Shown here one piece after another: positions 64 through 25,223 of a stretch of 32,000 nt of DNA (positions are counted from its first letter, which is position 1; each line of letters starts with the position of its first letter). The notes under the pieces are model-generated. The model did not search any database. It was given only the letters and a program-made list of their open reading frames with translations, and had not been told where the DNA came from. This DNA comes from Ktedonobacterales bacterium (GTDB lineage: Bacteria; Chloroflexota; Ktedonobacteria; Ktedonobacterales; JADMIN01), in the NCBI GenBank assembly GCA_030167145.1, contig CP126532.1, positions 2,640,001 through 2,672,000 on the forward strand. The letters run 5' to 3'. The position numbers and the translations under genes were made by a program.

Positions 64-3000
64 CTATGGCGCGACGCCCAGCCGCCGCAGCGCCCCGCGC
101 ACATCTTCGGCGTCGGGGGATTCGACCTGCACGAAGCGGCGCAGCGCCTCGCGGTAGTGCGCGATGGCGCCGCTGCGGTTGCGGGCATCTTCGTCGAGCA
201 CAGCAAGAAACCGATGACAATAGCCGATCCCCTGAATGTCGCTCAGGCGCTCGCAGATGCTGAGGCTTTGCTCGATCATGGCGCTGCCTCGCTCTGGCTC
301 GCCTTGCTTGCGAGCCAGGAATACGCCGAAATTGCGTAGCTCATTGGATTCAGCGGCGGGATCATTGAGTTGCCGCGCTAACTCAATGGCACGCTCGTAC
401 ATCGTTCGCGCTTCGCTGAGGCGACCCTCTTGCGAGTTCAGCACCGCCAGTTCATGCACCTCGGCACGCTCCGCCGCCGGGTCGCCCAACTGTTGGGCCA
501 GCGCCAGCGCCCGCGCGTAGCCCGCCCGCGCCTCGGCCAGCCGTCCAGTCTTGCTGTCGAGCACCGCCAGTTCATGCACCTCGGCACGCTCCGCCGCCGG
601 GTCGCCCAACTGTTGGGCCAGCGCCAGCGCCCGCGCGTAGCCCGCCCGCGCCTCGGCCAGCCGTCCGGTTTGCGCGTCGAGCACCGCCAGTTCATGCACC
701 TCGGCACGCTCCGCCGCCGGGTCGCCCAACTGTTGGGCCAGCGCCAGCGCCCGCGCGTAGCCCGCCCGCGCCTCGGCCAGCCGTCCGGTTTGCGCGTCGA
801 GCACCGCCAGGGCATGCACCTCGGCTTGCTCCGCCGCCGGGTCGCCCAACTGTTGGGCCAGCGCCAGCGCCCGCGCGTAGCCCGCCCGCGCCTCGGCCAG
901 CCGTCCGGTTTGCGCGTCGAGCACCGCCAGCCCATGCACCTCGGCTTGCTCCGCCGCCGGGTCGCCCAACTGTTGGGCCAGCGCCAGCGCCCGCGCGAAG
1001 CCCGCCCGCGCCTCGGCCAGCCGTCCAGTCTTGCTGTCGAGCACCGCCAGCCCATGCACCTCGGCTTGCTCCGCCGCCGGGTCGCCCAACTGTTGGGCCA
1101 GCGCCAGCGCCCGCGCGTAGCCCGCCCGCGCCTCGGCCAGCCGTCCAGTCTTGCTGTCGAGCACCGCCAGCCCATGCACCTCGGCTTGCTCCGCCGCCGG
1201 GTCGCCCAACTGTTGGGCCAGCGCCAGCGCCCGCGCGTAGCCCGCCCGCGCCTCGGCCAGCCGGCCTAATCGCCCTAGAGTTATCGCGCGACTATGCTCC
1301 ATATATTGGACTTCCGCCTTATCGTCCAATGATTGTGCCGCTTCCAGCGCCAGCGTATCTATGTGGAGTTCCTCGTCTCGTCGTCCTCGTGTGTCCCATG
1401 CTCGTCCCAAGGTCTTCGCCAGTGCTAGCACGTCGCGGTGGCGGGCGTGGTCGTGTGCCCAGGTGAGCGCGCCCATCAGGCCGGGCGCTTCGGCTTCGAG
1501 CGCGTCCATGCCGTCGTAGCCGGGATGCGCGCGGGCGTAGGCGAGCCAGTAGGCGATGAGGGTGTCGCCGAGACGGTCAGCGGTGGGGGTGGGGAGTTGG
1601 CGCAGGCGGGCGGCGGCGTACTCGCGCAGCAGTGGATGCAGGCGCAGGCGCGGGCCGGTGGCGCTGGCGAGCGGCTCGACCAAGCGCAGGGTGACGAGCG
1701 CGGCGACGGCGGCTTCGGCGTCAGCGGCAGTAGTGGGCACGGGCGGCGACGGGTCTGGCTGGTCCGGCTGGCCTGGTATGTCCAGGGTGGCGAGGGCGAG
1801 CGCGGCGGCGCGGGGGAAGCTGGGGCCGCTGATGAGCGCGAGACCGGCGAAGAGGCGCTGCTGCGCAGGAGTGAGCACATCCCAGGAGCGGTCGAAGCGC
1901 GAGACGATGGCCTTGCGGGGATTGCTCTTGAAGGCGGCGGCGTTGATGCCGTCGCGGGCATGCTGTGCGCGGATGTCGGGCAGGGAGAGACCTTGCACAC
2001 CGGCATAGGCGGCGGTCAGCTCGATGGCCAGCGGCAGACCGCCCAACTCTTCGACGATGGCGTCTAGCTCTGGGCGCTCCTCGGCGGTGGGGCGTGCGCC
2101 CTCGGTGTTCTGCGCGAGGATACGGGCGAACATCTCGGCGGCGGGCACATCGTCCAAGGGGGAGAGCACGAGCGGCGTGAGGCGGGCATCGGGGATGGCG
2201 TCGCGGGCGGTGAGCAGCAGGGCGACGTGGCCGGGGACGGCGAGGGCATCGAGCAGCGCGGCGGCGGGCAGCGCAGGCTCGACGTTATCGAGGGCGATGA
2301 GGGTGCGCGGGCGTTCGGCGAGCGCGTCGGTGAGGGCGACCCGGCGGGTGTCGGGGTCGGCCACTTCGGCGATCTGGCGGAGTTGTAGTTCTTCGGCGAC
2401 GCGCCGCCAGAGTTCGGCGAGGCCGCTGGCTCCGGCGAGGTCTTCGCAGGAGATCCAGGCGAAGCCGCCGGGGAAGTCATCGGCATGGGATTCGGCGAGG
2501 CGGGCGACGGCTTCGGCGGCGAGGGCGGTCTTGCCGACACCGGCGATACCCTCGATGGCGAAGACGCCAACGGGGGCGCTGGCGGCGGTAAGCGCGGTGG
2601 CGAGCTTCTCTAGCTTGTCGTCGCGGCCCAGGAGTCCGGCGGCGCGAGGCAGGCCGGAGCGCGCGGCGATGATGCTGGGGACGGCGGGTGCGCTGGGCTG
2701 CGGCAGGTGGCGGAGGAGATAACTGGTGATGGCGGAGACGACCTGTTTGGCGAGGTTATCGGGCGTGGTGAAATAGCCGGGGGTATGGAGATCGGGATTG
2801 GCGAGGTGCGCGCGGAAGGCGTGGAGTTGCGCGGCGTGTTCGTGGTCGCGCAGGGCGACGGGGAAGAGGCTGTAGTTCTCTTCGGTGGCGGAATCGGCGA
2901 GGAAGACGAAGATGGGCTTTTTCAGTCGTACCGCCTCCTCGTATTCCTGGTGAGTGATGGAACGGGTCTCGCCAGGGGGAATAGTGGGGATGGAGCCGTA

Positions 3001-3693
3001 GCGCCAGGCGACGATGAGCACGACATACTCGGCTGAGTCGAGTTTGTCAGTGGAGACGGTGGCGGCGGCTTCGCCGGCGGCGAACTGAGCCATATCCACG
3101 ACGTACTGTTCGGTGCTTTCGAGGCTGTCATGCACGACACGGCGGTATTCGATGAGATCTATATACGTGGAACTGAGGAAGATGCGGCGGGTGATGCTGG
3201 TAGGCTGCGGGACGACGGGCGCAGGCGCGGGTAGCGTGTCGCGCACGGCCTTGGCGGTGGCGGCAGGGATGTCGGCAATATCGGCGCGCATGGCGGCGTT
3301 CTGGCCTTCGATACGCGCGACGCCCGTCTGAGTAGCGGCCCCCTGGTCTTCGATGCGGTCCAGCGCGGCGGGGATGCCAGCGTTGGCGGCGAGCTGCGAT
3401 TGTCTGGCGCGGAAGGCGAGCAGGGTGAGCCAGCCCATGAAGATCAGCAGCAGCGATTCGAGCGCGACGCAGGCGGCCTGGAGCAACGGCGATTGCTGGC
3501 GCAGCCAGTCGAAGAAGCTGGGGAGAGCGGAGAGCAGCGGCGGGGCGGCGTGCGCGCCGAGATACTGGGCCGCGCCAAAGGCAAAGTAGACGGCGAAGGT
3601 CCACCAGAGCAGCAGCAGCGCCCGCGCGAGCCAGTGGGCTAGGCCGGTGGGAGCGCGGGTGGCCGGTCGGGTTTCGGTCTGGATGGTGGTCAT
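64..3693 (-). CDS. Membrane-anchored STAND/NLR-like NTPase: 2 N-terminal TM helices + DUF4062 (TIR-like fold) + NB-ARC-type P-loop NTPase + C-terminal TPR array
   Basis: 1209-aa ORF with GAGGAGGG RBS just upstream of the ATG at 3693. Hydrophobic helices LLLLWWTFAVYFAFGAA and LESLLLIFMGWLTLLAF. DUF4062-like block RRIFLSSTYIDLIEYRRVV...YVVLIVAWRYGSIP...THQEYEEAVRLKKPIFVFL. Walker A GIAGVGKTALA and Walker B-like TLIALDNVE. Then about 9 TPR-like 40-aa repeats. Confidence 0.85.
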   Translation of the reverse strand: MTTIQTETRPATRAPTGLAHWLARALLLLWWTFAVYFAFGAAQYLGAHAAPPLLSALPSFFDWLRQQSPLLQAACVALESLLLIFMGWLTLLAFRARQSQLAANAGIPAALDRIEDQGAATQTGVARIEGQNAAMRADIADIPAATAKAVRDTLPAPAPVVPQPTSITRRIFLSSTYIDLIEYRRVVHDSLESTEQYVVDMAQFAAGEAAATVSTDKLDSAEYVVLIVAWRYGSIPTIPPGETRSITHQEYEEAVRLKKPIFVFLADSATEENYSLFPVALRDHEHAAQLHAFRAHLANPDLHTPGYFTTPDNLAKQVVSAITSYLLRHLPQPSAPAVPSIIAARSGLPRAAGLLGRDDKLEKLATALTAASAPVGVFAIEGIAGVGKTALAAEAVARLAESHADDFPGGFAWISCEDLAGASGLAELWRRVAEELQLRQIAEVADPDTRRVALTDALAERPRTLIALDNVEPALPAAALLDALAVPGHVALLLTARDAIPDARLTPLVLSPLDDVPAAEMFARILAQNTEGARPTAEERPELDAIVEELGGLPLAIELTAAYAGVQGLSLPDIRAQHARDGINAAAFKSNPRKAIVSRFDRSWDVLTPAQQRLFAGLALISGPSFPRAAALALATLDIPGQPDQPDPSPPVPTTAADAEAAVAALVTLRLVEPLASATGPRLRLHPLLREYAAARLRQLPTPTADRLGDTLIAYWLAYARAHPGYDGMDALEAEAPGLMGALTWAHDHARHRDVLALAKTLGRAWDTRGRRDEELHIDTLALEAAQSLDDKAEVQYMEHSRAITLGRLGRLAEARAGYARALALAQQLGDPAAEQAEVHGLAVLDSKTGRLAEARAGYARALALAQQLGDPAAEQAEVHGLAVLDSKTGRLAEARAGFARALALAQQLGDPAAEQAEVHGLAVLDAQTGRLAEARAGYARALALAQQLGDPAAEQAEVHALAVLDAQTGRLAEARAGYARALALAQQLGDPAAERAEVHELAVLDAQTGRLAEARAGYARALALAQQLGDPAAERAEVHELAVLDSKTGRLAEARAGYARALALAQQLGDPAAERAEVHELAVLNSQEGRLSEARTMYERAIELARQLNDPAAESNELRNFGVFLARKQGEPERGSAMIEQSLSICERLSDIQGIGYCHRFLAVLDEDARNRSGAIAHYREALRRFVQVESPDAEDVRGALRRLGVAP
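430..1265. repeat. Seven head-to-tail, near-identical 120-bp tandem repeats (coding, in frame; 40-aa TPR-like units of the STAND protein)
   Basis: Direct reading: the 60-nt half-unit gtcgcccaactgttgggccagcgccagcgcccgcgcgtagcccgcccgcgcctcggccag recurs at 481, 601, 721, 841, 961, 1081 and 1201, with one substitution in the 961 copy. The other half-unit differs only in three small patches. Confidence 0.95.
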
Positions 3694-3832: not shown

Positions 3833-3962
3833 CATGGTGGTGATCGTGGAATCCGCTGTCGCGGGTTGGGGCCGCCGAGACGGCGGCGGCATATGGGTGC
3901 GCTGCTTGCCCAGCGCCGGTATACTGGTGACGGTGCCGATCAGCGAGGAGGGAGTGTCAGCG

Positions 3963-5531
3963 ATGCCCGAAGAGACGGCTGAAGATCCAGCGTTGCCCGC
4001 GCGGCCTGCCAGCGACGACCGCGATGGATGGGCGGCGTATTGGCAGGAGCAGGGGCAGCCCTGGCGTACCGAGCCAGAGATTGACGGCGAGCGGCAGCGG
4101 GTGCTCGCGGCGCGGCGCGATCAGCCACACGGCAACACGGCGGCTGCGCCCTTCGCGGGCATCGAGCCAGGGTTGACGCGAGCGGACATCGAATGGCTGC
4201 TGGCGGCGCACGAGGATGGACGCGGGCCGGTGGACTGGCGCGACGAGCGCCAGCGCACACGCGCGGGGCTGGACCTGCGCGGCGCGCAGCTTGCGGGCGC
4301 GCATCTGGCGGGGCTGCCACTGGCGCGGCTGCGCGCGGGGCTGACCTCGGATGAATGGCGCAACGCCAGCGCGCGGCGCATGGAAGGCGCGGCGGGCCAT
4401 TTCGAGCGCGCGGACCTGACCGGCGCGCAGCTAGAGGGCGCGGTGCTGGAAGGCGTGCATTTGGAGGGCGCGCGGCTGCGTGGCGCGGCGCTGGAACAGG
4501 CGAACCTCAGCTTCGTCTTGCTCGAAGGCGCGACACTCTCCGAGGCGAATCTGGAGCGCGCGGACCTGACCGGCGCGCATATGGACGGCGCGATGCTCCC
4601 CGATGCGCGGCTGGCGGGGGCGACGCTGACCCGCGCGATGCTGGCGGGCGCGGATCTCTCCGACGCGCACCTGGAGGGCGCGCGGTTGGTGGCGGCGCGG
4701 CTCGGCGGGCGCACGCTGGAGGACGCGGCGCTGGCGCGGATTCGGCGCGGCTGGCCCGATGCGCCCGCAACGCTCCCTGGCGCGAACCTCTGCGGCGCAT
4801 TCTTCGACAACGCCACCGCGCTGGATGAAGCGGCGCTGGGCGACGAGACGGCGGAGGGTGGTGTGGCGCTGGCGGATCTGCGCTGGGGCGGCGCGAATCT
4901 GGCGGTGATAGATTGGGCGCTGCTGAAGACGCTGGGCGACGAACGCGAGGCCCGCGAAGCCGCGCACACCGGCAATAAGCCGAAGGATGACGCGCTGCGC
5001 CTCGCCGAATATCGCACCGCCGTCCGCGCGAATCGCCAGCTTGCCGTCGCGCTGCGCGAGCAGGGGCTGAACGAAGAGGCCGACCGCTTCGCTTATCGCG
5101 CGCATACCTTGCAACGCGCGGTGTATCTGCGCCAGGCGCTGCGGTCCAGCGCTCCGCGTGGGCGGCCGGGGGCGCGGCGCAGCGAGATCGGCCAGCGGCT
5201 GCTGCGCTTCGGCCAGTATGTGTTCTCGCTCTTCCTCGACGCGCTGGCTGGCTATGGCTATCGCCCCGGACGCAGCCTCGTGGCGTACATCGGATCGCTA
5301 GTGGTCTTCGCCGCGCTCTACTACGTCGTCGGGCAGCATACCGGCGCGCGGCTGGATGCCGTCGAAGCGATCTCGCTCAGCATCAACTCGTTTCATGGGC
5401 GCGGCTTCTTCCCCGGCACCGTGACGCCCAGCGACGCGGTGACCCTGCTGACGGCGGTGCAGGCGATCCTGGGGCTGGTGATCGAAATCAGCTTCATCGC
5501 CACCTTCACGCAGCGGTTCTTCGGGCGCTGA
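3963..5531 (+). CDS. Pentapeptide-repeat protein with C-terminal 2-TM pore-loop-like membrane domain
   Basis: ATG at 3963 preceded by GAGGAGGGAG RBS. The longer ORF from 3834 overlaps the REP-like element and reads as non-protein-like. Long run of A(D/N)LxG-type pentapeptides (ADLTGAQLEGAVLEGVHLEGARLRGAALEQANLSFVLLEGATLSEANLERADLTGAHMDGAML...). C-terminus has two hydrophobic helices flanking SINSFHGRGFFPG. Confidence 0.8.
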   Translation: MPEETAEDPALPARPASDDRDGWAAYWQEQGQPWRTEPEIDGERQRVLAARRDQPHGNTAAAPFAGIEPGLTRADIEWLLAAHEDGRGPVDWRDERQRTRAGLDLRGAQLAGAHLAGLPLARLRAGLTSDEWRNASARRMEGAAGHFERADLTGAQLEGAVLEGVHLEGARLRGAALEQANLSFVLLEGATLSEANLERADLTGAHMDGAMLPDARLAGATLTRAMLAGADLSDAHLEGARLVAARLGGRTLEDAALARIRRGWPDAPATLPGANLCGAFFDNATALDEAALGDETAEGGVALADLRWGGANLAVIDWALLKTLGDEREAREAAHTGNKPKDDALRLAEYRTAVRANRQLAVALREQGLNEEADRFAYRAHTLQRAVYLRQALRSSAPRGRPGARRSEIGQRLLRFGQYVFSLFLDALAGYGYRPGRSLVAYIGSLVVFAALYYVVGQHTGARLDAVEAISLSINSFHGRGFFPGTVTPSDAVTLLTAVQAILGLVIEISFIATFTQRFFGR

Positions 5532-5584
5532 GGCATAATGAGAGCAACACGCCTTCACCTCGCAATGGAAGAGCAGGGAATACC

Positions 5585-5899
5585 ATGGCCTATTCGATCA
5601 CCTTGACGGACGCAGAATACGCGGCGCTGGCGGCTGAGTCGGCGGCGCGCGGCACAACGATAGACGCGCTGGTGCATCAGACGCTGGCCGAACGCGCCAG
5701 CGCGCCCACCCCAGCTAAACAACCGATGACCGATGACGAATTCGAGCAACTGCTGTTTCGCAAGGGCATCATCGTGGCTATTCCAACAGGCGAACTAGAC
5801 TCGCCAGACGAAGAGGATGAGCTTGATGAGATAGCTCAGCGCGTTGGGCCAGGTAAGCCAGCTTCGGAAATGATAATCGAAGATCGGGGGCCGCGTTGA
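5585..5899 (+). CDS. Small RHH/antitoxin-like protein
   Basis: 104 aa. N-terminus MAYSITLTDAEYAALAAESAARGTTIDALVHQTL resembles a ribbon-helix-helix beta-strand plus helices. Acidic middle and C-terminal ...PASEMIIEDRGPR tail are typical of VapB-style antitoxins. Stop TGA overlaps the next ATG (TGATG). Confidence 0.55.
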   Translation: MAYSITLTDAEYAALAAESAARGTTIDALVHQTLAERASAPTPAKQPMTDDEFEQLLFRKGIIVAIPTGELDSPDEEDELDEIAQRVGPGKPASEMIIEDRGPR

Positions 5900-6579
5900 T
5901 GGCGAACACCCCTGCGAATCAGCCAGCCAGCAAAGCGCCATTTCATCTGAAAGAACCGGGGCCCAGCGTCACCCAGATACTCATTGCTACCGCCGGCACG
6001 CTGCTGATCGGCGTGCTGTATTACGTGCTGCCTGATTCCATTCGACTGGGGCCGCCGTGGCTGCTGTTGGTGTTGCTGGCGCTGCTGGCGATTCCGCCAG
6101 CAGTCTGGGTGCTCGTCCGGCGGCAGCGGATGCCGTATCGCACGGCGCGGACGCTGGCGATTGCGCTGCTGGTGGTGCTGACCGTCGCGCTGATCGGCTC
6201 GGTGGAGCAACTGCTGCGCTTCCTGCCAAACGCCACCGCCGCCCAGCTCTTGCGGCCGGGCGCGCTGCTCTGGATCAGCAATATATTGGTCTTCGCGGTG
6301 TGGTACTGGGAGACCGACGGCGGCGGACCTGGGAAGCGTCACCATCGCGGCCACCGGGCGGTTGACTTCCAATTTCCGCAGCAGGCCGACGGCAACACCA
6401 CGCATTGGGCCTCCGGCTTTGTTGACTACCTCTTCCTCGCCTTCTGCACGGCCACCGCGTTCAGCCCTACCGATACCATGCCGCTCACGCACCGCGCCAA
6501 GCTGCTGATGATGATCCAATCCGTCATCTCGCTGCTGATCCTCGGCGTGCTGATCGCCCGCACCGTCAATATCATCTGA
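5899..6579 (+). CDS. DUF1345-like polytopic membrane protein
   Basis: About 226 aa with 4-5 hydrophobic helices. C-terminal FVDYLFLAFCTATAFSPTDTMPLTHRAKLLMMIQSVISLLILGVLIARTVNII resembles the DUF1345 signature as I recall it. ATG at 5899 overlaps the upstream stop by 1 nt. Confidence 0.65.
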   Translation: MANTPANQPASKAPFHLKEPGPSVTQILIATAGTLLIGVLYYVLPDSIRLGPPWLLLVLLALLAIPPAVWVLVRRQRMPYRTARTLAIALLVVLTVALIGSVEQLLRFLPNATAAQLLRPGALLWISNILVFAVWYWETDGGGPGKRHHRGHRAVDFQFPQQADGNTTHWASGFVDYLFLAFCTATAFSPTDTMPLTHRAKLLMMIQSVISLLILGVLIARTVNII

Positions 6580-10501: not shown

Positions 10502-11599
10502 ATGCGCCCTGGCGTCTCACACGCCACCGCGTTCCTCTGCCGCGCGCTGTTGCTGCTGGTACTAAGCGCGCTTGCCGCGTGCGCCGGGCCGCCCGAAGTC
10601 GTCGAGCCGCTCCCCGCCACGCCAACGGGTTCGCCCACCACCGCGACCCCTGGCGGTACGCCTGGCGGCACGCCCGGTGGCACGCCTGGTGGTACGCCTG
10701 GTGGCGTCGCTTCACCGACCCCCACGCCCAAGCCATTGTCCCCCTTGTTGGTCTATGGCACCAACATGGCGCTGTATGATACCGGCGATCAGATCGCCAA
10801 CAAACCAGCCACCCAGCAAACGCTCAAGCAGCATGGCATTCCAATCATGCGCGTGCCCTCGCGCTTCACGCTTGCCGATGCCGACATGGTGCGGGCGCTG
10901 CAAGCCGTCAAGACTATCGGTGCGCTGCCGCTCTTCATCGTTCATGGCCCCACAGACAGCAACGCGCTCGCCGACGACAAACATCTGATCTCACTGGCGC
11001 AGGGTGTCTTTGGCGCCAGCACCGTCTATATCGAATACGGCAATGAATCGGACCTCGCGGGCATCAACGCGACGGACTATACCGCAAGCTGGAACGCGGT
11101 CGTTCCTCAGCTCAAGGCGATGGCCCCGACCTATAAGTTCATCGGGCCGGTCACATTTCAGTCCGATCCCACCTATATCTCCACCTTCGATAAGAATGCC
11201 AATCCCCGTCCAGACTTCAATAGCTGGCATGAATACGCCTGCCACCCCGGCGACTCCGATGCCCACTGCACCGCGCAGCTCGCCACCTGGACCGAGCACA
11301 TCCAGCAGACCAACGACGCCGTGCGCGCCGCCATCGGCACGACCATTCCGATCATGATTACTGAGTGGAATCTCGACGCCGAGCCAGACGCGCGCTACCA
11401 CAACGCCGCGTATATTCGCCAGTGGACCACCGACGCGCTGCATACCCTCGCCAGCAACGTACCCCACGGGCTGGCCGCCGCCATGCAATATGTCGCCACC
11501 AATAACCCGAATTTCAGCCTGCTCGACGGCGCGAATCAGCCGACGCTCCAGGGCGCGGCGTTCTTCCAGGCGCTGGCCATTGCCAAGGGCGACCCGTAA
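10502..11599 (+). CDS. Secreted lipoprotein, clan GH-A (TIM-barrel) glycoside hydrolase-like
   Basis: Signal peptide plus lipobox LSALAAC. (TPGG)x5 linker. Candidate acid/base YIEYGNESD and nucleophile IMITEWNLD, the NE...E(W) pattern of GH5/GH39-like enzymes. Confidence 0.8.
   Translation: MRPGVSHATAFLCRALLLLVLSALAACAGPPEVVEPLPATPTGSPTTATPGGTPGGTPGGTPGGTPGGVASPTPTPKPLSPLLVYGTNMALYDTGDQIANKPATQQTLKQHGIPIMRVPSRFTLADADMVRALQAVKTIGALPLFIVHGPTDSNALADDKHLISLAQGVFGASTVYIEYGNESDLAGINATDYTASWNAVVPQLKAMAPTYKFIGPVTFQSDPTYISTFDKNANPRPDFNSWHEYACHPGDSDAHCTAQLATWTEHIQQTNDAVRAAIGTTIPIMITEWNLDAEPDARYHNAAYIRQWTTDALHTLASNVPHGLAAAMQYVATNNPNFSLLDGANQPTLQGAAFFQALAIAKGDP
10646..10705 (+). repeat. 5 x 12-bp in-frame tandem repeat encoding (T-P-G-G)5 linker
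   Basis: acccctggcggt/acgcctggcggc/acgcccggtggc/acgcctggtggt/acgcctggtggc read directly. Confidence 0.9.
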
Positions 11600-13287
11600 G
11601 GCACGTCGGCCTGCGGATACAACGCCTGTAGGCCCGACGACGGGCGCTCGCCGAACGCCCCTACAGATGGAGTGAAGGGCACGAAGCCGTTTGGGCCTGC
11701 GGGCGCGGGTGGCGGGCCGCCGCCCTGATCGCCGCTAGGCGCGGCTCCCGCGACCACGTGTTTGCGCCAGATCATCGTGTACGCTGCCCCATACACATTC
11801 TGGACAAACACTTTCGCTGCCAGATCATACTGCTTGCCACTGAGCAGTTCTGGCTGGAGCGCAAAGTCCAGCGGGGCGGCGACACCGTAGCTCATCTCGA
11901 TCACATCGAAGAACCCATCGGCGACGGCGGCTTTATAGGCATCCACCCCCGCGAAATATTGCCCCTGCTTACTGGTGTACTCGAACCAGAACGGGCCAAC
12001 CCACTGCCAGTCCTCGGTCACGTCCCGCAAGTAGTAGCGTGCGACCTCCATATCCTCGGCCAGATAGTGCCCACCCGTCGGACGCACCAGCGAGCGCATC
12101 ACCTGCACCATACCGCTGCTATCGCTCCAGGTGTGAAACATCCAGTGGCCCTGTTGCGCGCCCAGCAGAAAGACGATCAGGCACAGCGCCAGCGCCGCCA
12201 GCCAGCTACGGCTCGCCACCACCAGCGTGCGCCCCGCGCCAGCCAGCCGTGTGACGGCATAGCCCGCCAGCGGCGCCGCGAAGAACATCGCGTAGGCGAT
12301 GTGTTTATCCAGCGAGACTGGCTCAGCTTTGTAGAGGTGATAGGCCGGCGCGAGCAGCGCCGAACCAAAGAGGATCAGCGCGATCATGCGCCGCTTGCGC
12401 CCCGCGAAGAGCAGCCCCAGAAAGCCCAGCGTCAGGCCGATGCCACCCAGCGCCACTACCTCCCAGATCAGGCCGGGCCGGGGCGCGGGCTGGGTGATGG
12501 CGCGGCTGGTGGTGCTGCCCGCCACCGCATGCAGAAAGCTGTGATCCAGTACCGCCAGCGCCAGCGCCGCGCTTGCGGCTATCGAGATCAGCGCCAGCAC
12601 CACACGCAGCAGCGCCTGGAACCATCCCCGCGCGCCGAGCGTCTGCCACGCCAGGATTGCCAGCGTCGAAGGCGCCCAGAGCATCGCCGCGTATTTGTTC
12701 AGCGTCGCCAGCACCAGCAGCGGACCCAGCGCCAGCGCCAGCAGCGGCGCACGCGCCGTGCTCGCACGGAACGCCACCACCACCGCCAGCGCCAGCAGCA
12801 TCAGGCACATGGCATCGTAGGTCGCCAGTCGCGCCAGAAACAGCACTGGCCCCTGGAAAGCGAAGATGGCGGCGGCGAAGATCGCGCTCTCACGGCTGAA
12901 GAGATGCCCTGCCACCCAATACACACAGATGGTGACGACGAGCATCGCCACCAGGCTCAGCACCCGCGCCGCCTCCACGCCGCCCCAAGCGTCGAAGATG
13001 CCCGCCAGCAGCGGATAGAAGTAGGGATTGCCCGACATGTACGAGGCAAATGGGTCTATCTCGGGCACACCAGTGCGGATCGAAGTCATCAACTGCCGCC
13101 CGGCATAGAGATACAACGCCTCATCCTGGAAGGCGGTATTGCGCAGCGTCAGCACCGCGACACCCGCTTGCAGCGTCAGGATACAGGCGAGCGGCAGATA
13201 CGACCACCGCGCGAGCGCGCGCGCCCATGCGCTGGCGCGGGTTGTCTGCGGCGCAGTCTGCGCCCGGCCTCTCAGGGTGACGCTCAT
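11536..13287 (-). CDS. GT-C fold membrane glycosyltransferase #1 (GT39/GT83, ArnT/PMT_2-like)
   Basis: 583 aa, more than 10 hydrophobic helices. First-loop acidic motif NTAFQDEALYLYAGRQL. Soluble C-terminal domain. GGAGGAAGG RBS before the ATG at 13287. The last ~60 codons overlap the convergent GH gene and REP-like elements. Confidence 0.8.
   Translation of the reverse strand: MSVTLRGRAQTAPQTTRASAWARALARWSYLPLACILTLQAGVAVLTLRNTAFQDEALYLYAGRQLMTSIRTGVPEIDPFASYMSGNPYFYPLLAGIFDAWGGVEAARVLSLVAMLVVTICVYWVAGHLFSRESAIFAAAIFAFQGPVLFLARLATYDAMCLMLLALAVVVAFRASTARAPLLALALGPLLVLATLNKYAAMLWAPSTLAILAWQTLGARGWFQALLRVVLALISIAASAALALAVLDHSFLHAVAGSTTSRAITQPAPRPGLIWEVVALGGIGLTLGFLGLLFAGRKRRMIALILFGSALLAPAYHLYKAEPVSLDKHIAYAMFFAAPLAGYAVTRLAGAGRTLVVASRSWLAALALCLIVFLLGAQQGHWMFHTWSDSSGMVQVMRSLVRPTGGHYLAEDMEVARYYLRDVTEDWQWVGPFWFEYTSKQGQYFAGVDAYKAAVADGFFDVIEMSYGVAAPLDFALQPELLSGKQYDLAAKVFVQNVYGAAYTMIWRKHVVAGAAPSGDQGGGPPPAPAGPNGFVPFTPSVGAFGERPSSGLQALYPQADVPYGSPLAMASAWKNAAPWSVG
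11625..11666. repeat. Composite REP-like element (cctgtag-gcccg-acga-cgggc + gggcgctc-gcc-gaacgccc-ctacag)
   Basis: Flanked by the inverted CCTGTAGG / CCCTACAG ends. The second half has the same 8-3-8 + CTAC architecture as 3809-3832. Confidence 0.6.
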
Positions 13288-13311
13288 CGCCTTCCTCCTA
13301 TCAAGTACGAG

Positions 13312-13344
13312 TTATCCACAGGGTTATCCACAAGATTATCCACA
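13312..13344. promoter_or_regulatory. Three perfect DnaA-box consensus nonamers (TTATCCACA) in a 12-bp tandem array
   Basis: TTATCCACA at 13312-13320, 13324-13332 and 13336-13344. The array lies 25-57 nt upstream of the GT-C #1 start codon (13287, minus strand) and overlaps the TAA stop (13336-13338) of the upstream synthase gene. Confidence 0.9.
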
Positions 13345-16300
13345 GGTTGACGCTTTCCCCGGCGGCAACAGCGCACGCCAGTCCGCTACTGCCTGCCGCG
13401 AGAGCGGGTCGGATTCCAGCGACCATTGCAGATCGTCCGCTTGCGTCGCATGCACATCCGGCGCGCCCTCGTGGTAGAGCAGCGCGTACACATGCGCGTC
13501 CGCTTTTGCCGCGCTCTCGGTCTGCTCCAGCCACGCCGCTTTATCCTGCGGATCGCCCGACGCGCTGACCTCCAGGAAGATCGGCTTGCCGGGATGTCGC
13601 GCCTCCACGGCGCTTAGCACGGCGCTGGGATCGGGCCAGGGGGTATTGGGGTAGCGGATCATGCTCTGCAACACCACATCAATCGTCGTGTCCGGCGGCG
13701 CATATTGTTGATCGTGCGCCGGGTCGGCGGGCGACCAGACCCATGCGACATTGGTCGCGCCCGCCGCCGCGAAGACCGCCTGCACATGCTCCCAGGCGCG
13801 CGGCACATCCTGCGGAATGCCGCCATTAGCCACAGCGGAAGAGAGCGCCCAGTTGCGGTCCACGTGCAGCAGAATTGTCAGGTAGATCGGCTTGCCATAC
13901 ACCGCAATTTCGCGCGCCCAGCGTTGCAGCGCGGTATCGTCCACGCCGTTGGCGATGGCAGGCAGCCCAGCGGAGAGCGGCGGCTCTCCATCCGCGCCGA
14001 ACTCGCCGAATTGCAGCGTAACCCACGGGCGCTGCTGATGTGCGGCAAGCTGGTTGGCCCAGGCGATGTCGAACGAATCGGTAAGGTCTTGCGTGCGCCC
14101 GATGATTGTGAACGGCAGGCAAAGCTGCTGCGCGAGTTGCGTGGGGCGCGTCTTCAGCCACTCGACCCGCACCGATAGCCCCAGGTACGGCGCGCCGTGG
14201 TACGCGGCGGGCACGAAGCGCGCGGGTGGCTGCGCATCCACCAGCCGCGACGTGATGAAAGCGCCCGTACACAGCACCAGCAGCCCACTCAGCAGCGCTC
14301 CTCGCGCCCTCGTCGCGGCCCATCCCCATGCCGAGTACACTCCCTGCGTCGCGACGCGCTGCGGCGCACGCGCCACATGAATCGCGACGCGGTGCGCAGC
14401 CGCCCACGCCTGCATGCGCGCCCACACGCTCTGGCGCTGCCGCGCTTCGCCGTAGCGCAGGTCGCGCACGCCCAGCCACAAGACGCTGCCCAACAGGCCG
14501 ATGTCGTAGATCACCCACAACACACTAACAATCACCGAATCGCGGTGCGCGTGTGGCACGACGAACGCCACAACGATGCCGGCAAAGCAGGCGACAACAG
14601 CCACCAGATAGACGACGAGATGGCTCCATGCGCTCGTCGTGCGCCGCTGCTTGGATGTGACCATGAAGCCCGTGCGCCCACCAGTGATGACCGTCCACAA
14701 CGCCTGAATCAACACCGGAAAGCTGCCGAAGCCGATGATGATGCCGCGAATGCCGGTCTCGCGGCGACTGGCGTACCAGAACGCCCCCTGCGCGGCGATC
14801 CAGTATGGCACAAAGTGCCACAGGAAGAGCGCCAGCGTCGCACCGCGCACCGCCGGAATGCCGGTAAACAGGAAGGCCAGCGGCGCTACCAGGTAGATCA
14901 GGTCGCGCACGCCGCAGAGATAGTGCGTGCAGGCCAGCGCATATTGCAGCCGCTGCCCCACATGCAGGCCGCCGCGCCGGGGCAGCCAGATCGCGCGCCA
15001 GTGTGTGCGCAGCACACCCAGCGTGCCAATTGCCCAGCGGCGCTGCTGCTTCAGGTATGCGGGCAGGTCCATCGGCCCCAGGCCCGTCGCCAGCACATCC
15101 GTCAGGAAGACACTGCGCCAGATGGGATGCAGCGCGATAGATGCGGCGAAATCTTCCGTCACCGAATCCTGTGGCAGCCCGCCAATCTCATCCAGCGCCG
15201 TCGCCCGCAACACCACATTCGTGCCGCAGATGAACGCGGCATTGAGCGCCGCCTTGCCGGGGCAGAGTATGCGATAGAACAACGCCTGCTGATCGTTGGC
15301 CCAATGCGCTACCGGCTGCTCCAGGTTAGTATAGTATTGCCCCGTCTGCACCCAGCCGATGGTGGGGTCCGCGAACGGCGGCACGGTCTTCAGCAGAAAG
15401 TCTGGCCGGGCGAGCTGGTCGGCGTCGAAGATCGCCACCAGCGCATCGCCGGTCGCGCCCACCTGCTGGCGCGCGTGCTCGATATTGCCCGCCTTCGCGC
15501 CGCCACCTGCCGTGCGAGTGACACATTGCACGCCCATCCGCTCCGCCAGGCTTTCCACTTCGCGCCAGCAGGGCGCGTTGGCGACGCGCCCATCATTGCA
15601 GAGCACGATGGCGACCTGCCCCTGCGGATACGCGCGCAGATAGCGGCGGCGCGCTTCCAGCGCCGCCTTGAGGGTCGGCGCGAGCACCCCAGCGCCTTCA
15701 TTCACCGTGGGAATGAAGATGAAGACCGGGCGGCGCGCGGGATCTTCGGAGGGGACGATGCGCGGCCTGGACCACGGCCAGACGGTATATTGCAGCCCCA
15801 GCGTATGCACCGCGCCAAACGCCTCGGCGGCGAGCAGCGGCACGGCAATCCACCAGGCTGCCCAGTTCGAGACTTCCAGCCGCCACGTCAGATAGTCAAT
15901 CGTCGTCACGCCCACCGTCGCGGCCAGCAGAATCGTCAGCAGCTTCCGGCTATCCGCTCCACCACGCAGCGCGATGCTCACCCCCAGCGCCAGCGTCGCC
16001 AGCATCACCCAGCCACCTGGTAGCAGCAGCACGATACAGGCAAGCGCGACGACGATCAACGCTGCTGAGATCAACGTCATCGCCTGCTCGCGGCGCTGCG
16101 GAAGCCCGCTCCGCTCATGCCGCTCATGCTGCTCATGCTGCTCGCGTTCCGCCTCCGCCTCCGTGACCACCTCGAAGTCGGCTCCGCTCTCCGGCATTGC
16201 CGTGCATGGCGCCGTCACCACGAAGTCACGCGCATTGGTTGCGCTCGCCTCTGGCGCGCCGTCCACATGCGCGCCGTTGGAGTGCTTGCCCTTGGCATGC

Positions 16301-16614
16301 TTGTTCTTGGCATGCTTGTTCTTGGCATGCGGTTGCGCCGCGTGGACGCCGTCCGCATGTGCGCCGTTGGGGTGTGGCTGCGCCTCCTGGGCGGGCAAGC
16401 GCGCGATAGCGAAGCGCGCGATGGTGAAGGGCGCGATGGTGAAGGGCGCGAGACGCGAGACGACAAACGCATTCTTCAAGCCTCCCGCCGCTGGGTGGCG
16501 CGCCGACGCGGTGGGCGCTGAAGAAATAAGTGATGAAGCAGCGGGCGGCGACCTCTGTGACGATGCCGCTTCTTCGCGCTCCGGTGGGTCAGCAACGGTA
16601 TTTTGATGCGTCAT
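13336..16614 (-). CDS. Processive GT2 glycan synthase (BcsA/PgaC-like, QxxRW) fused to a repeat-rich N-terminus and a C-terminal extracytoplasmic glycoside-hydrolase-like domain
   Basis: GT2 motifs VFIFIPTVNE, LCNDG, AKAGNIEHA, AIFDADQ, VTEDFAASIALH, LKQQRRWAIGT, flanked by multiple TM helices. The C-terminal ~300 aa (…RWAREIAVYGKPIYLTILLHVDRNW…NVAWVWSP…KPIFLEVSASG) reads like a GH26/GH5-type barrel. Start uncertain: 16614 (MTHQNT) or 16653. Confidence 0.85.
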   Translation of the reverse strand: MTHQNTVADPPEREEAASSQRSPPAASSLISSAPTASARHPAAGGLKNAFVVSRLAPFTIAPFTIARFAIARLPAQEAQPHPNGAHADGVHAAQPHAKNKHAKNKHAKGKHSNGAHVDGAPEASATNARDFVVTAPCTAMPESGADFEVVTEAEAEREQHEQHERHERSGLPQRREQAMTLISAALIVVALACIVLLLPGGWVMLATLALGVSIALRGGADSRKLLTILLAATVGVTTIDYLTWRLEVSNWAAWWIAVPLLAAEAFGAVHTLGLQYTVWPWSRPRIVPSEDPARRPVFIFIPTVNEGAGVLAPTLKAALEARRRYLRAYPQGQVAIVLCNDGRVANAPCWREVESLAERMGVQCVTRTAGGGAKAGNIEHARQQVGATGDALVAIFDADQLARPDFLLKTVPPFADPTIGWVQTGQYYTNLEQPVAHWANDQQALFYRILCPGKAALNAAFICGTNVVLRATALDEIGGLPQDSVTEDFAASIALHPIWRSVFLTDVLATGLGPMDLPAYLKQQRRWAIGTLGVLRTHWRAIWLPRRGGLHVGQRLQYALACTHYLCGVRDLIYLVAPLAFLFTGIPAVRGATLALFLWHFVPYWIAAQGAFWYASRRETGIRGIIIGFGSFPVLIQALWTVITGGRTGFMVTSKQRRTTSAWSHLVVYLVAVVACFAGIVVAFVVPHAHRDSVIVSVLWVIYDIGLLGSVLWLGVRDLRYGEARQRQSVWARMQAWAAAHRVAIHVARAPQRVATQGVYSAWGWAATRARGALLSGLLVLCTGAFITSRLVDAQPPARFVPAAYHGAPYLGLSVRVEWLKTRPTQLAQQLCLPFTIIGRTQDLTDSFDIAWANQLAAHQQRPWVTLQFGEFGADGEPPLSAGLPAIANGVDDTALQRWAREIAVYGKPIYLTILLHVDRNWALSSAVANGGIPQDVPRAWEHVQAVFAAAGATNVAWVWSPADPAHDQQYAPPDTTIDVVLQSMIRYPNTPWPDPSAVLSAVEARHPGKPIFLEVSASGDPQDKAAWLEQTESAAKADAHVYALLYHEGAPDVHATQADDLQWSLESDPLSRQAVADWRALLPPGKASTCG
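16112..16460. repeat. Cluster of short in-frame tandem repeats in the 5' part of the synthase gene (9-bp x3-4, 6-bp, 15-bp x2.7, 15-bp x4)
   Basis: ccgctcatg/ccgctcatg/ctgctcatg (EQHEQHERHE). cttggcatgcttgtt x2.7 at 16291-16330 (HAKNKHAKNKHAKGKH). gcgcgatggtgaagg-type units at 16401-16460 (FTIAPFTIARFAIARL). Confidence 0.85.
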
Positions 16615-16759
16615 GCGGATGCTAAGCCCCTGCCTACGCCAGAACGTAGGCAATCTGCGCGCGTCTTGCGCGCGTGTTCGTCTCTATGCTTCTGTGAGTG
16701 TGTACGTGCATCTTTGCGCCCCACACTGTATAGGCCCTGCGCCTCCGCACCCAAGTTCG

Positions 16760-16789
16760 TGGGTATCACCACGAACCTACTTCGGTATC
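16760..16789 (-). promoter_or_regulatory. Bipartite GATACC element, copy A (minus-sense GATACCGAAGTA-N9-TGATACCCA)
   Basis: Plus-strand tgggtatcaccacgaacctacttcggtatc. It matches the box halves and N9 spacing of 22941-22970 exactly. On the gene strand it is followed by TTGGGT-N16-TATACA (16754-16727). It lies 146-175 nt upstream of the synthase ATG at 16614. Confidence 0.6.
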
Positions 16790-16875
16790 GCTCCGCTAGA
16801 GCGCGAGCGCAGCGCATCGCCTTCCCGCGCGCCATCCCATGCCCCGCTGCCTCGCTTGCGCCACGCGATCCGCGA

Positions 16876-18690
16876 TCAGCCACCCTGGCCGCTGCCGCCG
16901 TGTGGTGTGGCAGTGGTGGGCTGCGCGGCTGGGGTCGCGGATGCTGGGCGGCTGATTTGCTCGGCAATCGTCGGCTGCGTCAGATCGTTCGCGCCGATGT
17001 GTTGCACTTGATAGATCGCGACCCAGAACAGCTTATTCTGGAATTTCTTGATGAGTGTCGCATGATCGAGGGCATTCAGAATCAGCGTCATATTGAAGTT
17101 TTTGGCATCGGTGAGCAGATCGCTATCCGCCATGATGTAATCCACGTTGTTCCAGTCGTTGTGGAAGATGCCAGTGCCCACCGCCGGGTCCGTCGCCACC
17201 ACCCAGTACATTTCCACATGCGCGAACGGCGCGCCGTTGCCCGCGCCAATGCCGCCGGGCGTGCGCATATCCACATAGTTGTAGTGGTTGGCGATAATCA
17301 TCGCCGAGCGCGGCACATGCGCGCTCATCCACTCCATCGCCTGAATCTGCGGGCCAGTCTCATTCGCCGTCAGATTCTTCGTGTTCATGCGCGCTTCATA
17401 GGGCGCGAGCACCGTCAGGATGCCCACCACCACGAGCAGCAGCGCCGCCTGCAACACACGTGCGCGCGGAACCGACGCCAGCCGCCGCGCCCACGGCGGC
17501 GCGCTCAACCACTGGCCAGCGCGCTGCGGCATTCGGGTGTGTTCTGGCAGCCAGATGATGATAAACCTGAGCGCATAGTAGAGGAAGATGGCCACGTTTA
17601 GGGCCAGGAATGGCAGCAACGGGATGATATAGTAGGCGAAGGTGACGCCGCCACGCGCCAGGAACAGCAGATAGATCAGCGGCAAGAGCGGCACGATACG
17701 TATCCGTGGCTGCCAGCGACTCACCAGCAGATTGCCAGCGATAGCCACCATTCCGCCGAGCAGCAGCAATCCATCGTCTTTGCGCCAAGCGTCCCATTGC
17801 TCCAGAAATGAGCCGCCGTTGCTGCCACGTCCCGCCTGTTGCAGGTAGGTGGTAATCATGCTCACATGCGGATTCGTTCCACCCAGCAACGTTCCCGTCG
17901 GAAAGAGTTCGTTTTTCAGCAACGCCAGCAACACATAGGATGAGACCAGCGCCAGGGCGAGATAGCAGAACAGCACTACCGCATAGCGGCGCTGAAACTT
18001 GGAGGACACGAGCCAAACGCCGTAGATGAACACCGGCAACAGAATCACCGCTGTCTCTTTCGAGAGAAACGCCAGCCCGAACGCGAGCGCGCTGCCCAGG
18101 ATGTAGCGCATGCGGCTCTCGCTTGCCACCAGCAGGTACAGCGCCAGCATGACCCAGAAGGTCGCGATATTATCGAGCAATACCTCGCGCTGGTAGTTGA
18201 TGCTCAACGGCGAGAGCGAGAAGAGCGCCATCGCCAGCAGCGCAATCCAAATATTGCCCGTGAGTTTGCGCGCGGTGAGGTACACGAAGAGCGACGCGAG
18301 GGCGTCGAGAAATAGAATGAAGACACGCCCGCTGTTGATAGCCGTGCCAAACGTAAAGAAACCACCGGTGAGCTGGCACCAGACGCCGATCATCGCCCAG
18401 CCCAGCGGCGGATGACCATAGCTGTAGGTGTAGGGGAAGACATTGCCGTGCATCACCGACCACGCCGCCGCCACATACACGCCCTCATCGCCCTGATAGC
18501 GTGGGAAGTTGAAGAGATTCCACGCGTGCGCCACCACACCCACGCCCAGCAGCGCGCCCACCAGCAGCGCCTCGAAGATCCAGGCGCGGGCGAGCGCAGC
18601 GCGGCGGGCGCGCATCAGCAGCGCGTGTGCGCCCATGCGCGGTGGATGTGTGGCAGTTGGGGGCAGCGCGAGAGCATCACGGGCGTTCAT
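16876..18690 (-). CDS. GT-C fold membrane glycosyltransferase #2 (GT39/PMT_2-like)
   Basis: Start taken at ATG 18690 (MNARDAL...) with GAGGGAAG RBS and an ATGA overlap with the stop of the upstream GT2. First-loop motif FPRYQGDEGVYVAAAW. More than 10 TM helices plus a C-terminal soluble domain. Confidence 0.85.
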   Translation of the reverse strand: MNARDALALPPTATHPPRMGAHALLMRARRAALARAWIFEALLVGALLGVGVVAHAWNLFNFPRYQGDEGVYVAAAWSVMHGNVFPYTYSYGHPPLGWAMIGVWCQLTGGFFTFGTAINSGRVFILFLDALASLFVYLTARKLTGNIWIALLAMALFSLSPLSINYQREVLLDNIATFWVMLALYLLVASESRMRYILGSALAFGLAFLSKETAVILLPVFIYGVWLVSSKFQRRYAVVLFCYLALALVSSYVLLALLKNELFPTGTLLGGTNPHVSMITTYLQQAGRGSNGGSFLEQWDAWRKDDGLLLLGGMVAIAGNLLVSRWQPRIRIVPLLPLIYLLFLARGGVTFAYYIIPLLPFLALNVAIFLYYALRFIIIWLPEHTRMPQRAGQWLSAPPWARRLASVPRARVLQAALLLVVVGILTVLAPYEARMNTKNLTANETGPQIQAMEWMSAHVPRSAMIIANHYNYVDMRTPGGIGAGNGAPFAHVEMYWVVATDPAVGTGIFHNDWNNVDYIMADSDLLTDAKNFNMTLILNALDHATLIKKFQNKLFWVAIYQVQHIGANDLTQPTIAEQISRPASATPAAQPTTATPHGGSGQGG

Positions 18691-19967: not shown

Positions 19968-20128
19968 GGTATCCTCATCTCAATAGGTGGCTTCATGGCT
20001 TATGGGTCGCGAATATGGGTGGCTAGTGACCAGATAGGAGTGACAGAGCGTGTATTGAAGGCATTGCAGTGTGTCTGTAGGCGTGCCTAGAAATACAAGG
20101 TTGCCGGGTCAATGCCGAAGGCGCTGCT

Positions 20129-21199: not shown

Positions 21200-21246
21200 A
21201 GCAGGTGACTCCTTCCGCGATCAGCGAGGGAGCGATACGGTCGCCT

Positions 21247-22848: not shown

Positions 22849-22940
22849 GGGTGTTCCATTCGTAGATGGCGGGCAGTGTCGGCGGCTTGCGTCCTTACTC
22901 ATGAATGGTATGCACTTCCGTTTCCAGCCCTCACACCCTC

Positions 22941-22970
22941 TGGGTATCATCCCGCATGTACTTCGGTATC
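22941..22970 (-). promoter_or_regulatory. Bipartite GATACC element, copy B (minus-sense GATACCGAAGTA-N9-TGATACCCA)
   Basis: Plus-strand tgggtatcatcccgcatgtacttcggtatc. It lies in the divergent intergenic region, 93-122 nt upstream of the GH ATG at 22848. Confidence 0.6.
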
Positions 22971-23117
22971 CGTCTCCAGGGAAGCTCGCGCAAAGGCTGA
23001 TTTCTTGGCCCCTCACGCTGTCGCGAATCTGCATAGCGCCCGCCTGCCATCGCCCCGTTCGCGCGTATCATTGTGACAGGCTCTTACGCACTGCGCTGGT
23101 TGGGGGTCCGCTACGCT

Positions 23118-24695: not shown

Positions 24696-24735
24696 CACGC
24701 TGACGGCCATACCGACCCTCTGCGAGATCCCCCTG

Positions 24736-24766
24736 TGATACCCAAGGCACATCATCGTGATACCCT
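24736..24766 (+). promoter_or_regulatory. GATACCC direct repeat, copy C (TGATACCCA-N13-TGATACCCT; 22-bp phasing)
   Basis: tgatacccaaggcacatcatcgtgataccct read directly. It sits immediately upstream of the -35-like hexamer of the GT2/radical SAM operon. Confidence 0.6.
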
Positions 24767-24773
24767 CCGTGCC

Positions 24774-24801: not shown

Positions 24802-24889
24802 TGGTCGTATACCCGCGACAAGACATCAAGCACCCGACGTGGCATGCCGGGCAACGGCAATGGACTACGGTCGCTGGGGAGAGACACCT

Positions 24890-25210: not shown

Positions 25211-25223
25211 GAGGAATGCAGAC

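Follow-up and report, generated by a model that had tools for sequence, protein, structure and literature searches.

A highly internally conserved tetratricopeptide repeat array with variation at predicted groove positions in an NLR-like STAND protein of a Ktedonobacterales bacterium

The window analysed here, a stretch of 32,000 nucleotides (nt) from contig CP126532.1 (positions 2,640,001 to 2,672,000 of the forward strand, assembly GCA_030167145.1) of a Ktedonobacterales bacterium, carries on its minus strand a gene for a protein of 1209 amino acids (aa), which combines a DUF4062 domain and a nucleotide-binding NB-ARC domain with a C-terminal array of tetratricopeptide repeats (TPRs). The protein is of the type of nucleotide-binding leucine-rich repeat receptors (NLRs) and thus NLR-like within the signal transduction ATPases with numerous domains (STAND). 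Seven of its repeats are highly internally conserved (HIC) and differ from one another at a small number of codons, which are the subject of this analysis. In the order of the protein, the gene comprises the following features, for which the array was delimited with Tandem Repeats Finder (TRF) and the coding register:

64..3693, minus strand: whole gene, 1209-aa single-chain NLR-like STAND protein (open reading frame (ORF) and translation, Pfam)
3406..3636, minus strand: hydrophobic N-terminal region, aa 20-96, with two candidate membrane-spanning segments at about aa 22-40 and about aa 68-96
2932..3186, minus strand: DUF4062 domain, aa 170-254 (Pfam, E = 1.2e-14)
2011..2622, minus strand: NB-ARC nucleotide-binding domain, aa 358-561 (Pfam, E = 6.2e-12)
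2527-2541, minus strand: Walker A motif GVGKT, G385-T389, invariant in the family alignment
2275-2310, minus strand: Walker B region LIALDNVE(P), aa 462-473 (LIALDNVE aa 464-472), with D469, N470 and E472 invariant in the subfamily
1267..1386, minus strand: N-terminal flanking degenerate unit, aa 770-809, with 58-63 differences per 120 nt from the core units
427..1266, minus strand: seven highly internally conserved 40-aa TPR units, aa 810-1089
1147-1266, minus strand: U1, 120-nt unit in coding frame
1027-1146, minus strand: U2, likewise
907-1026, minus strand: U3, likewise
787-906, minus strand: U4, likewise
667-786, minus strand: U5, likewise
547-666, minus strand: U6, likewise
427-546, minus strand: U7, likewise
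307..426, minus strand: C-terminal flanking degenerate TPR unit, aa 1090-1129, about 50% nt identity
67..306, minus strand: C-terminal capping helical repeats, aa 1130-1209, kept across the subfamily

The ORF is uninterrupted over 3.6 kb and encodes, in this order, a hydrophobic N-terminus, DUF4062, NB-ARC and the 40-residue TPR array. The protein is identical to the NCBI entry 'MAG: hypothetical protein OJF49_002536 [Ktedonobacterales bacterium]', which is located on a 5.07-Mb contig. The repeat region is matched by Pfam TPR_12 with E = 1.5e-24, and its closest solved TPRs by sequence are those of LGN/Pins (1e-13). An AlphaFold2 (AF2) model of this region, with a mean predicted local distance difference test score (pLDDT) of 96.6, consists of a regular stack of 22 paired helices, in which helix B comprises the unit positions 3-20 and helix A the positions 23-39; by structure, too, the model is closest to the LGN/Pins TPR (template modelling (TM) score 0.82-0.90, root-mean-square deviation 2.1-3.0 A). 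The part consisting of DUF4062 and NB-ARC was modelled with a pLDDT of 83.5, and its best Foldseek matches are the plant NLRs NRC and RPP1 together with Apaf-1 and CED-4. Since an NB-ARC domain with P-loop, C-terminal repeats and an N-terminal effector-type domain are all present, the gene encodes an NLR-like STAND NTPase. The maxima of the Kyte-Doolittle 19-mer mean in the N-terminal region are 2.1 (aa 68-96) and 1.58 (aa 22-40), and a similar hydrophobic N-terminus is found in the homologues P0003, P0004, P0006, P0007 and P0009, which makes the N-terminal segments candidates for membrane insertion.

TRF reported one strong array in the window, located at 440-1263, with a period of 120, 6.9 copies, 97% matches and no indels. 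Pairwise nt identity among the seven units amounts to 88-99% (97% against the consensus) and pairwise aa identity to 85-100%, with a mean of 92% over 280 aa. One 60-nt half of the unit is particularly uniform: its seven minus-strand copies, located at 481, 601, 721, 841, 961, 1081 and 1201, are exact in six cases, the copy at 961-1020 having a single mismatch, and no matches were obtained in any of 100 shuffled sequences used as control. A search with this half-unit found no copy outside the array. Both flanking units are only about 50% nt-identical to the core units, and the homogenised tract is therefore sharply bounded. The repeated sequence also gives rise to two further ORFs, a plus-strand ORF at 430-1269 (279 aa) and an out-of-frame minus-strand ORF at 438-1175, which we rejected as coding frames and regard as by-products of the repeat, the domain matches all lying in the 1209-aa minus-strand frame.

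Within the array, aa variation is limited to codons 10, 27, 32 and 37-40. Codon 10 is TAC or TTC (Tyr/Phe, the Phe variant occurring once, in unit 3), codon 27 is CAA or CGT (Gln/Arg), codon 32 is GGG, GCC or GAA (Gly/Ala/Glu), and codons 38-40 read either AGC AAG ACT (Ser-Lys-Thr, SK) or GCG CAA ACC (Ala-Gln-Thr, AQ). Additional differences are confined to the edges of the array, namely a synonymous GGC at codon 1 of unit 1 as well as CTG at codon 36, Asn at 37 and Ser-Gln-Glu (SQE) at 38-40 of unit 7. Altogether, the 16 variable nt columns fall into only 9 codons (P = 1e-4), seven of them with replacements and two with synonymous changes only, and 14 of the 16 columns are located within the last 42 nt of the unit (nt 79-120; P < 1e-5). 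In the five inner units, the 34 codons besides 10, 27, 32 and 38-40 are identical in every copy, and one synonymous difference alone is present, ACT or ACC at codon 40, which goes completely with the state of the SK/AQ patch. The alleles are 2-6 nt apart at codon 27, at codon 32 and in the 38-40 patch, and 1 nt apart at codon 10. Along the array, codon 27 (QQQQRRR) and codon 32 (GGGAEEE) are arranged in simple blocks, and the 38-40 patch, in the order SK, SK, AQ, AQ, AQ, SK, SQE, is the sole patch out of block order.

These results confirm the initial annotation of the array, with a few corrections. The seven 120-bp repeats and the half-unit that is identical in six of seven copies, with one Tyr-to-Phe change at 961-1020, were recovered as described; the proposed repeat identity of about 98-100% was too high, as the pairwise values given above indicate. 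Three variable patches are indeed present (codons 27, 32 and 38-40), but they do not hold every other difference, as had been claimed, since units 1 and 7 contribute further ones. Likewise, the suggested mosaic shuffling of alleles applies to the 38-40 patch, which breaks the blocks, and does not extend to codons 27 and 32, which are in block order; the mosaic as a whole calls for no more than about one recombination event.

The variable codons were then placed on the TPR fold. Pfam TPR_2 matches aa 1081-1107 with its profile positions 6-32 and TPR_8 agrees, so that aa 1081 (unit position 32) corresponds to TPR position 6; therefore, the canonical position equals the unit position minus 26. 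Accordingly, unit positions 27, 32, 38, 39 and 40 are TPR positions 1, 6, 12, 13 and 14 in helix A and the next turn, and the Tyr/Phe position 10 is TPR 24 in helix B. All replacement variation is thus found in helix A or the following turn, except for Tyr/Phe in helix B. In TPR proteins in general, the hypervariable positions of the concave face are 2, 5, 9, 12, 13, 33 and 34, and the ligand contacts in HOP are made by positions 2, 5, 6, 9, 12 and 13 (Magliery and Regan, PMC1261162). The alignment with Pins/LGN puts unit positions 33-35 (Leu-Ala-Val) opposite the Leu-Gly-Asn triplet, with 35 at the position of the Asn, which in LGN/Pins hydrogen-bonds peptides in the inner groove (PMC3438535). 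Measured from position 35, a helical wheel places 27, 32, 38 and 39 at angles of -80, +60, -60 and +40 degrees, and the conserved packing positions 26, 30, 33 and 37 at 140-180 degrees. Taken at the level of sequence, this supports a placement of positions 27, 32, 38 and 39 on the side that would face the ligand groove.

Regarding the origin of the pattern, the alleles of codon 27 and those of codons 38-40 are combined in all four ways, in either register (four-gamete test), from which we conclude that at least one recombination or conversion event took place. In-phase tracts of exact identity between copies are 76-145 nt long and therefore represent ample substrate for homologous recombination. 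Between equivalent flanks, the paralogue P0002 (71% identity), encoded by the same genome, has retained four or five units that have diverged to a nt identity of 51-70%; homogenisation is therefore recent and private to the gene in the window. P0002 is the only paralogue found in the genome and no gene with the same unit, which could have served as donor for inter-locus conversion, was found, so that the exchange appears to be intragenic only. The multi-nt allele differences on a framework without synonymous change indicate that the differences at 27, 32 and 38-40 predate the identity of the framework. Indeed, the same states recur among homologues: AGC-AAG (SK) at 38-39 is also found in P0007 and L004, GCG-CAA (AQ) in unit 1 of P0002, GCG-CAG in P0003 and P0007, and GAA at position 32 in four homologues, and Gln/Arg at 27 as well as Tyr/Phe at 10 recur at the equivalent positions among P0002, P0003, P0007 and L004. 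The variant patches hence look like inherited haplotype blocks common to homologues rather than new mutations. The number of central units varies between 2 and 7 across homologues, the two units of P0007 being 88% identical. In P0003, a 61%-identical homologue, units 4 and 5 (L003 8296-8535) are 98% identical at the DNA level, and their only aa difference is Tyr/Phe at position 10. As judged from these sequence comparisons, the pattern is explained most economically by concerted evolution, in which unequal crossing-over or conversion within the gene would have spared and re-assorted a few states at groove positions.

We also considered the array as the target of a diversity-generating retroelement and rejected this possibility: the substitutions are not specific to adenine, as G>C, C>G and T>C are among them, there is no template copy outside the array, and a scan of the window's ORFs and of the genes called in its flanks revealed no reverse transcriptase. 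As to strain variants, an exact 42-mer of the unit had 0 matches in the metagenome collection, and profile scans of genome and metagenome contigs returned relatives only, with an identity of at most 49%.

To cover the wider family, we applied TRF to 168 related NB-ARC-TPR loci, which were drawn from collections of genomes and metagenomes. In 54 of these loci it detected tandem units of about 120 bp, nearly always exactly 120, with 67-89% matches and 2-15 copies; in comparison, the array in the window, with 97% matches, represents the extreme, and short-read assemblies probably under-represent such arrays. For 14 related 120-bp arrays, aligned in a cyclic BLOSUM register and leaving out L001 and L124, for which a wrong open frame had been selected, we pooled the within-array ratio of nonsynonymous to synonymous differences per site (pN/pS). 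The overall ratio is 0.47, and values above 1 were obtained at unit positions 28 (1.72), 31 (1.66), 35 (2.76), 38 (1.24) and 39 (1.66), which are TPR positions 2, 5, 9, 12 and 13. From this we conclude that the groove face diversifies across the wider family. Of the positions concerned, only 38 and 39 coincide with variable positions in the array of the window, in which 27 and 32 are helix neighbours of the others. Four distant NB-ARC-TPR relatives from soil metagenomes (L089, at 4249-6048, L128, L118 and L116) have 7-15 120-bp units with 79-89% identity, which are hypervariable at unit positions 28, 31, 32, 35, 38 and 39, and would be useful material for a family-wide study of selection.

At the other end of the protein, DUF4062 has been described as a TIR-like NADase, which acts in anti-phage defence in the Swarozyc and Evangelion systems (bioRxiv 10.64898/2026.05.01.722283; 10.64898/2026.06.25.731849). 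The DUF4062 profile of the subfamily matches the solved DUF4062 chain of the Swarozyc protein KpSwz (10wc_A) with E = 6e-17, and the match stops at the end of the domain. E250 (window 2944-2946) is invariant in the alignment and lies opposite an Ala in the deposited KpSwz chain; because the solved KpSwz protein is an E97A mutant (bioRxiv 10.64898/2026.05.01.722283), we infer that E250 is the putative equivalent of the catalytic Glu. It belongs to a T-H-x-E motif that is found throughout the subfamily (2944-2955, aa 247-250; homologues P0002-P0013). The N-terminal module differs between members: the homologue P0005 has a zinc-ribbon and a TIR domain in the place of DUF4062, and in P0003, P0007 and P0009 the hydrophobic N-terminus alone precedes NB-ARC. 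Such apparent swapping of modules would be typical of the effector position of NLRs, and the latter three homologues suggest that the membrane-type N-terminus may itself act as an output or anchoring module.

Taking these results together, we consider it likely that the array forms the TPR solenoid with which a single-polypeptide NLR-like STAND NTPase of a Ktedonobacterales (Chloroflexota) genome senses its ligand, and in which the framework of the repeats was homogenised and the groove states were retained. Repeated intragenic unequal crossing-over or gene conversion would have homogenised the framework, while the older groove states, i.e. Q/R at 27, G/A/E at 32 and SK/AQ at 38-39, would have been kept and re-assorted. 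The outcome would be a series of modules that have the same structure but vary, from one to the next, in the residues of the inner groove and thereby might set the binding specificity, and further slippage could add, delete or re-order modules. A ligand bound in the groove would release the autoinhibition of NB-ARC and lead to oligomerisation, which in turn might trigger NAD+ hydrolysis by the N-terminal DUF4062 and, by analogy with TIR-NLRs, Swarozyc and Evangelion, abortive infection or cell death. The steps that go beyond the sequence pattern, namely binding in the groove, oligomerisation and depletion of NAD+, are proposed by analogy, and the role might be anti-phage or another kind of non-self or stress sensing. 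A bolder extension, according to which a small and ancient cross-species 'alphabet' of groove states (27, 32, 38-39 and Y/F at 10) is re-assorted on a fully homogenised scaffold by RecA-type intragenic recombination, with clonal populations continually yielding NLR variants that differ in the number and order of units, appears doubtful to us; if it were true, the array would be a prokaryotic, germline-free counterpart of the repeat shuffling in the fungal genes het-e and het-d, coupled to a TIR-like NADase death effector.

Several observations weigh against the array being a diversifying sensor of this kind. The Nei-Gojobori pN/pS over all unit pairs of the array is 0.67, a value to which only about 5 sites and 7 units are informative, and positions 28, 31 and 35, which have the strongest signal in the family, are invariant in it. 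The exposure of the variable positions to the groove is deduced from homology and helical periodicity, not from coordinates. Variation between strains is not represented in the data, as the protein is the sole member of its cluster at 90% identity, on a single contig, and a second strain or allele was not found in the collections searched. Moreover, the Walker B motif has Asp-Asn where NB-ARC proteins usually have Asp-Asp/Glu, which could mean slow or altered ATP hydrolysis, and the first Glu of the T-E-x-E motif of KpSwz and more distant DUF4062 proteins is replaced by His. Finally, PADLOC-DB 2.0.0 (2023) recognised no known system, the sole match being to a generic 'TPR repeats containing protein' model, and the genomic context is not a defence island.

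It is against this background that the broader proposals of the initial annotation have to be seen. The assignment of the repeats to the TPR sensor of a STAND/NLR-like protein is borne out by the Pfam domains and by the fold matches to plant NLRs, Apaf-1 and LGN/Pins, and the expected location of the variable positions on the concave face is predicted from homology and helical periodicity for 27, 32, 38 and 39. The statement that almost all differences change the amino acid is correct when counted per codon (7 versus 2), but does not translate into a pN/pS above 1. A per-position analysis of related arrays, similar to the check that had been suggested for paralogues, did yield ratios above 1 at five positions, three of which do not vary in the array itself. 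The idea of a recombination-driven specificity generator has the four-gamete test in its favour and must be toned down with respect to both selection, of which the array bears no formal positive sign, and shuffling, which is limited.

The pattern could also be due to a neutral and very recent tandem amplification, in which slippage multiplied two or three ancestral units with slight differences, so that the differences would be leftovers without meaning for specificity in a gene that is perhaps drifting. This would be in line with the pN/pS below 1 within the array, with the simple blocks at codons 27 and 32, which block duplication predicts, and with patches that behave as linked haplotypes from ancestral unit types; strictly speaking, one recombination event would be enough. 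However, the units of relatives differ along their whole length including synonymous sites (P0007, P0002), whereas the inner five units here lack any framework difference, i.e. homogenisation spared exactly a few helix-A codons, as reflected in their clustering (P = 1e-4). The spared codons are, moreover, predicted to be located on the ligand-contacting face, the same face has pN/pS above 1 in 14 independent arrays, and the ORF is intact with all catalytic motifs present. We therefore regard a neutral origin as unlikely.

Alternatively, the protein could have no immune function and act, like AfsR, MalT or LGN, as a regulator or scaffold of the STAND type, with a TPR that binds an endogenous partner or serves as a spacer and with repeats that are identical because a uniform rigid rod is required. 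The neighbouring genes have a housekeeping character (a pentapeptide-repeat protein, a thioredoxin-like protein, a LuxR-type two-component pair and glycosyltransferase/PMT_2 genes), no PADLOC defence model was matched, and LGN and Pins, which have the closest solved TPRs, are scaffolds. NCBIfam returned sub-threshold partial matches to HaaT, AfsR and FimS only, those to AfsR extending over NB-ARC and TPR and being far below the cutoff. Yet no DNA-binding or other output domain is present besides DUF4062, a family that is experimentally an NADase in anti-phage defence and is replaced by TIR in P0005. The neighbourhoods are not conserved among homologues of the NLR-like gene, as would be predicted for stand-alone immune sensors, and selection for uniformity would not keep multi-nt differences precisely at groove positions. 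A regulator or scaffold is thus very unlikely in our view. Least probable of all is an artefact, in which assembly or the mis-mapping of reads during polishing would have produced the copy number or the variant arrangement of the 840-bp array, since, although the sequence is present in one assembly only (the NCBI and JGI versions being the same 5.07-Mb contig) and highly repeated arrays are known to be hard to reconstruct (PMC12222747), the period is exactly 120 nt without indels in an open frame, the variants match alleles or codons at equivalent positions in independent homologues from other samples, which errors would not, and a single 5-Mb contig would imply long reads spanning 840 bp.

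Beside the NLR-like gene, the window contains several other features. A divergent gene for a pentapeptide-repeat protein is located 140 bp upstream of the NLR-like gene and is not conserved beside its homologues:

3834-5531, plus strand: pentapeptide-repeat protein, 565 aa (Pfam Pentapeptide, 3.3e-25)

This gene has periodic DNA repeats of 15 and 30 bp (TRF arrays at 4276-4736). Directly downstream of the NLR-like gene and past position 1 of the window, a 79-aa ORF is followed by a gene for a PIN-domain protein (L001 11737-12413), which looks like a VapBC-type toxin-antitoxin pair. An envelope-glycosylation cluster at 11536-26570, which appears to be unrelated to the array, encodes three PMT_2-type glycosyltransferases, several GT2 enzymes, including a 1105-aa cellulose-synthase-like protein, and a GH44-like protein; the glycosylation genes are followed by those for a radical SAM enzyme and an FMN-dependent dehydrogenase. 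At the junction of the minus-strand ORFs 30728-31318 and 31347-31934, the sequence CTTCGCGCACTCAA forms a perfect tandem repeat of 14 bp (31309-31358; 3.6 copies, 100% match), overlapping both the first codons of the former and the last codons of the latter.

Among known systems, the array can be compared with proteins that have a related sensor, a related effector or a related repeat. With regard to the effector, the protein resembles KpSwz of the Swarozyc system and Evangelion in possessing DUF4062 with an invariant Glu. It differs from them in its sensor module, as KpSwz and Eva01 use small auxiliary (AUX) sensor domains in place of NB-ARC and TPR; therefore, it is not a member of Swarozyc or Evangelion and has only the effector in common with them. 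Among the eukaryotic DUF4062-STAND proteins (TEP1, NWD1, NWD2 and NPHP3), a DUF4062 is likewise positioned N-terminally to the STAND NTPase and repeats in TEP1, NWD1 and NWD2 (bioRxiv 10.64898/2026.05.01.722283).

With regard to the repeat, the period of 40 residues and the superhelix are common to the array and LGN/Pins (GPSM2), whose superhelix binds extended peptides in its inner groove. The LGN repeats are mutually diverged and have Leu-Gly-Asn, whereas here Leu-Ala-Val is found, and the likeness is one of fold and repeat type only, not of function. Marold et al. 2015, on '42PR', and Hu et al. 2017 are reportedly the works to which Dyrka et al. 2020 refer for internally conserved bacterial repeats. 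Membership in 42PR was rejected, as the unit has exactly 40 residues (120 nt) and not 42, the 42-residue definition being taken from the title and its citation, and no 42PR structure was among the PDB sequence matches at E <= 1e-3.

The closest counterparts of the array are found among fungal NLRs. Podospora genes with HIC repeats, namely het-e, het-d and nwd, are said to have been treated by Paoletti et al. in 2007. HIC repeats are defined by more than 85% identity over at least 100 aa, and the WD, ANK and TPR repeats of this class in fungal NLRs, NB-ARC-TPR genes among them, are polymorphic in number and positively selected at their concave face (Dyrka et al. 2014, PMC4986451). The seven units, spanning 280 aa with an aa identity of 85-100%, fall into this identity class. 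Further likenesses are the STAND architecture of NB-ARC and TPR, the small number of variable positions, which map (here by prediction) to the concave TPR face, the signs of recombination between units and the variation of unit number between related genes. The differences are that the host is a bacterium, that the effector consists of DUF4062 and a hydrophobic N-terminus, and that the 40-aa unit is LGN/Pins-like, whereas the fungal example was modelled on kinesin light chain; in addition, polymorphism of repeat number between strains and site-wise positive selection are documented for Podospora alone.

TPR and WD repeats with an internal identity of 80-90% have also been noted in NLRs of bacteria, Chloroflexi among them, and a regime of rapid diversification was suggested for these and left untested (Dyrka et al. 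2020, bioRxiv 10.1101/2020.01.06.895854). The protein described here agrees with them in the NB-ARC/TPR architecture, in its origin from a filamentous multicellular lineage, which include Chloroflexi, and in a unit identity of 80-90% or more; it differs in that no partner gene with a Bell domain or an amyloid motif is located at the locus. What is new beyond that study is the position-by-position analysis, the sharing of alleles with homologues and the DUF4062 effector. We thus deal with a known phenomenon and not with a new kind of system, in a combination of lineage and effector that has not been examined in detail before. HIC repeats with few hypervariable groove positions are a hallmark of fast-evolving fungal NLRs and have been noted only in passing in bacteria, for which the locus represents an unusually clean example with defined candidate positions for specificity. 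It therefore provides a convenient test case for asking whether sensors of bacterial NLRs diversify by repeat shuffling and what the TPR groove recognises.

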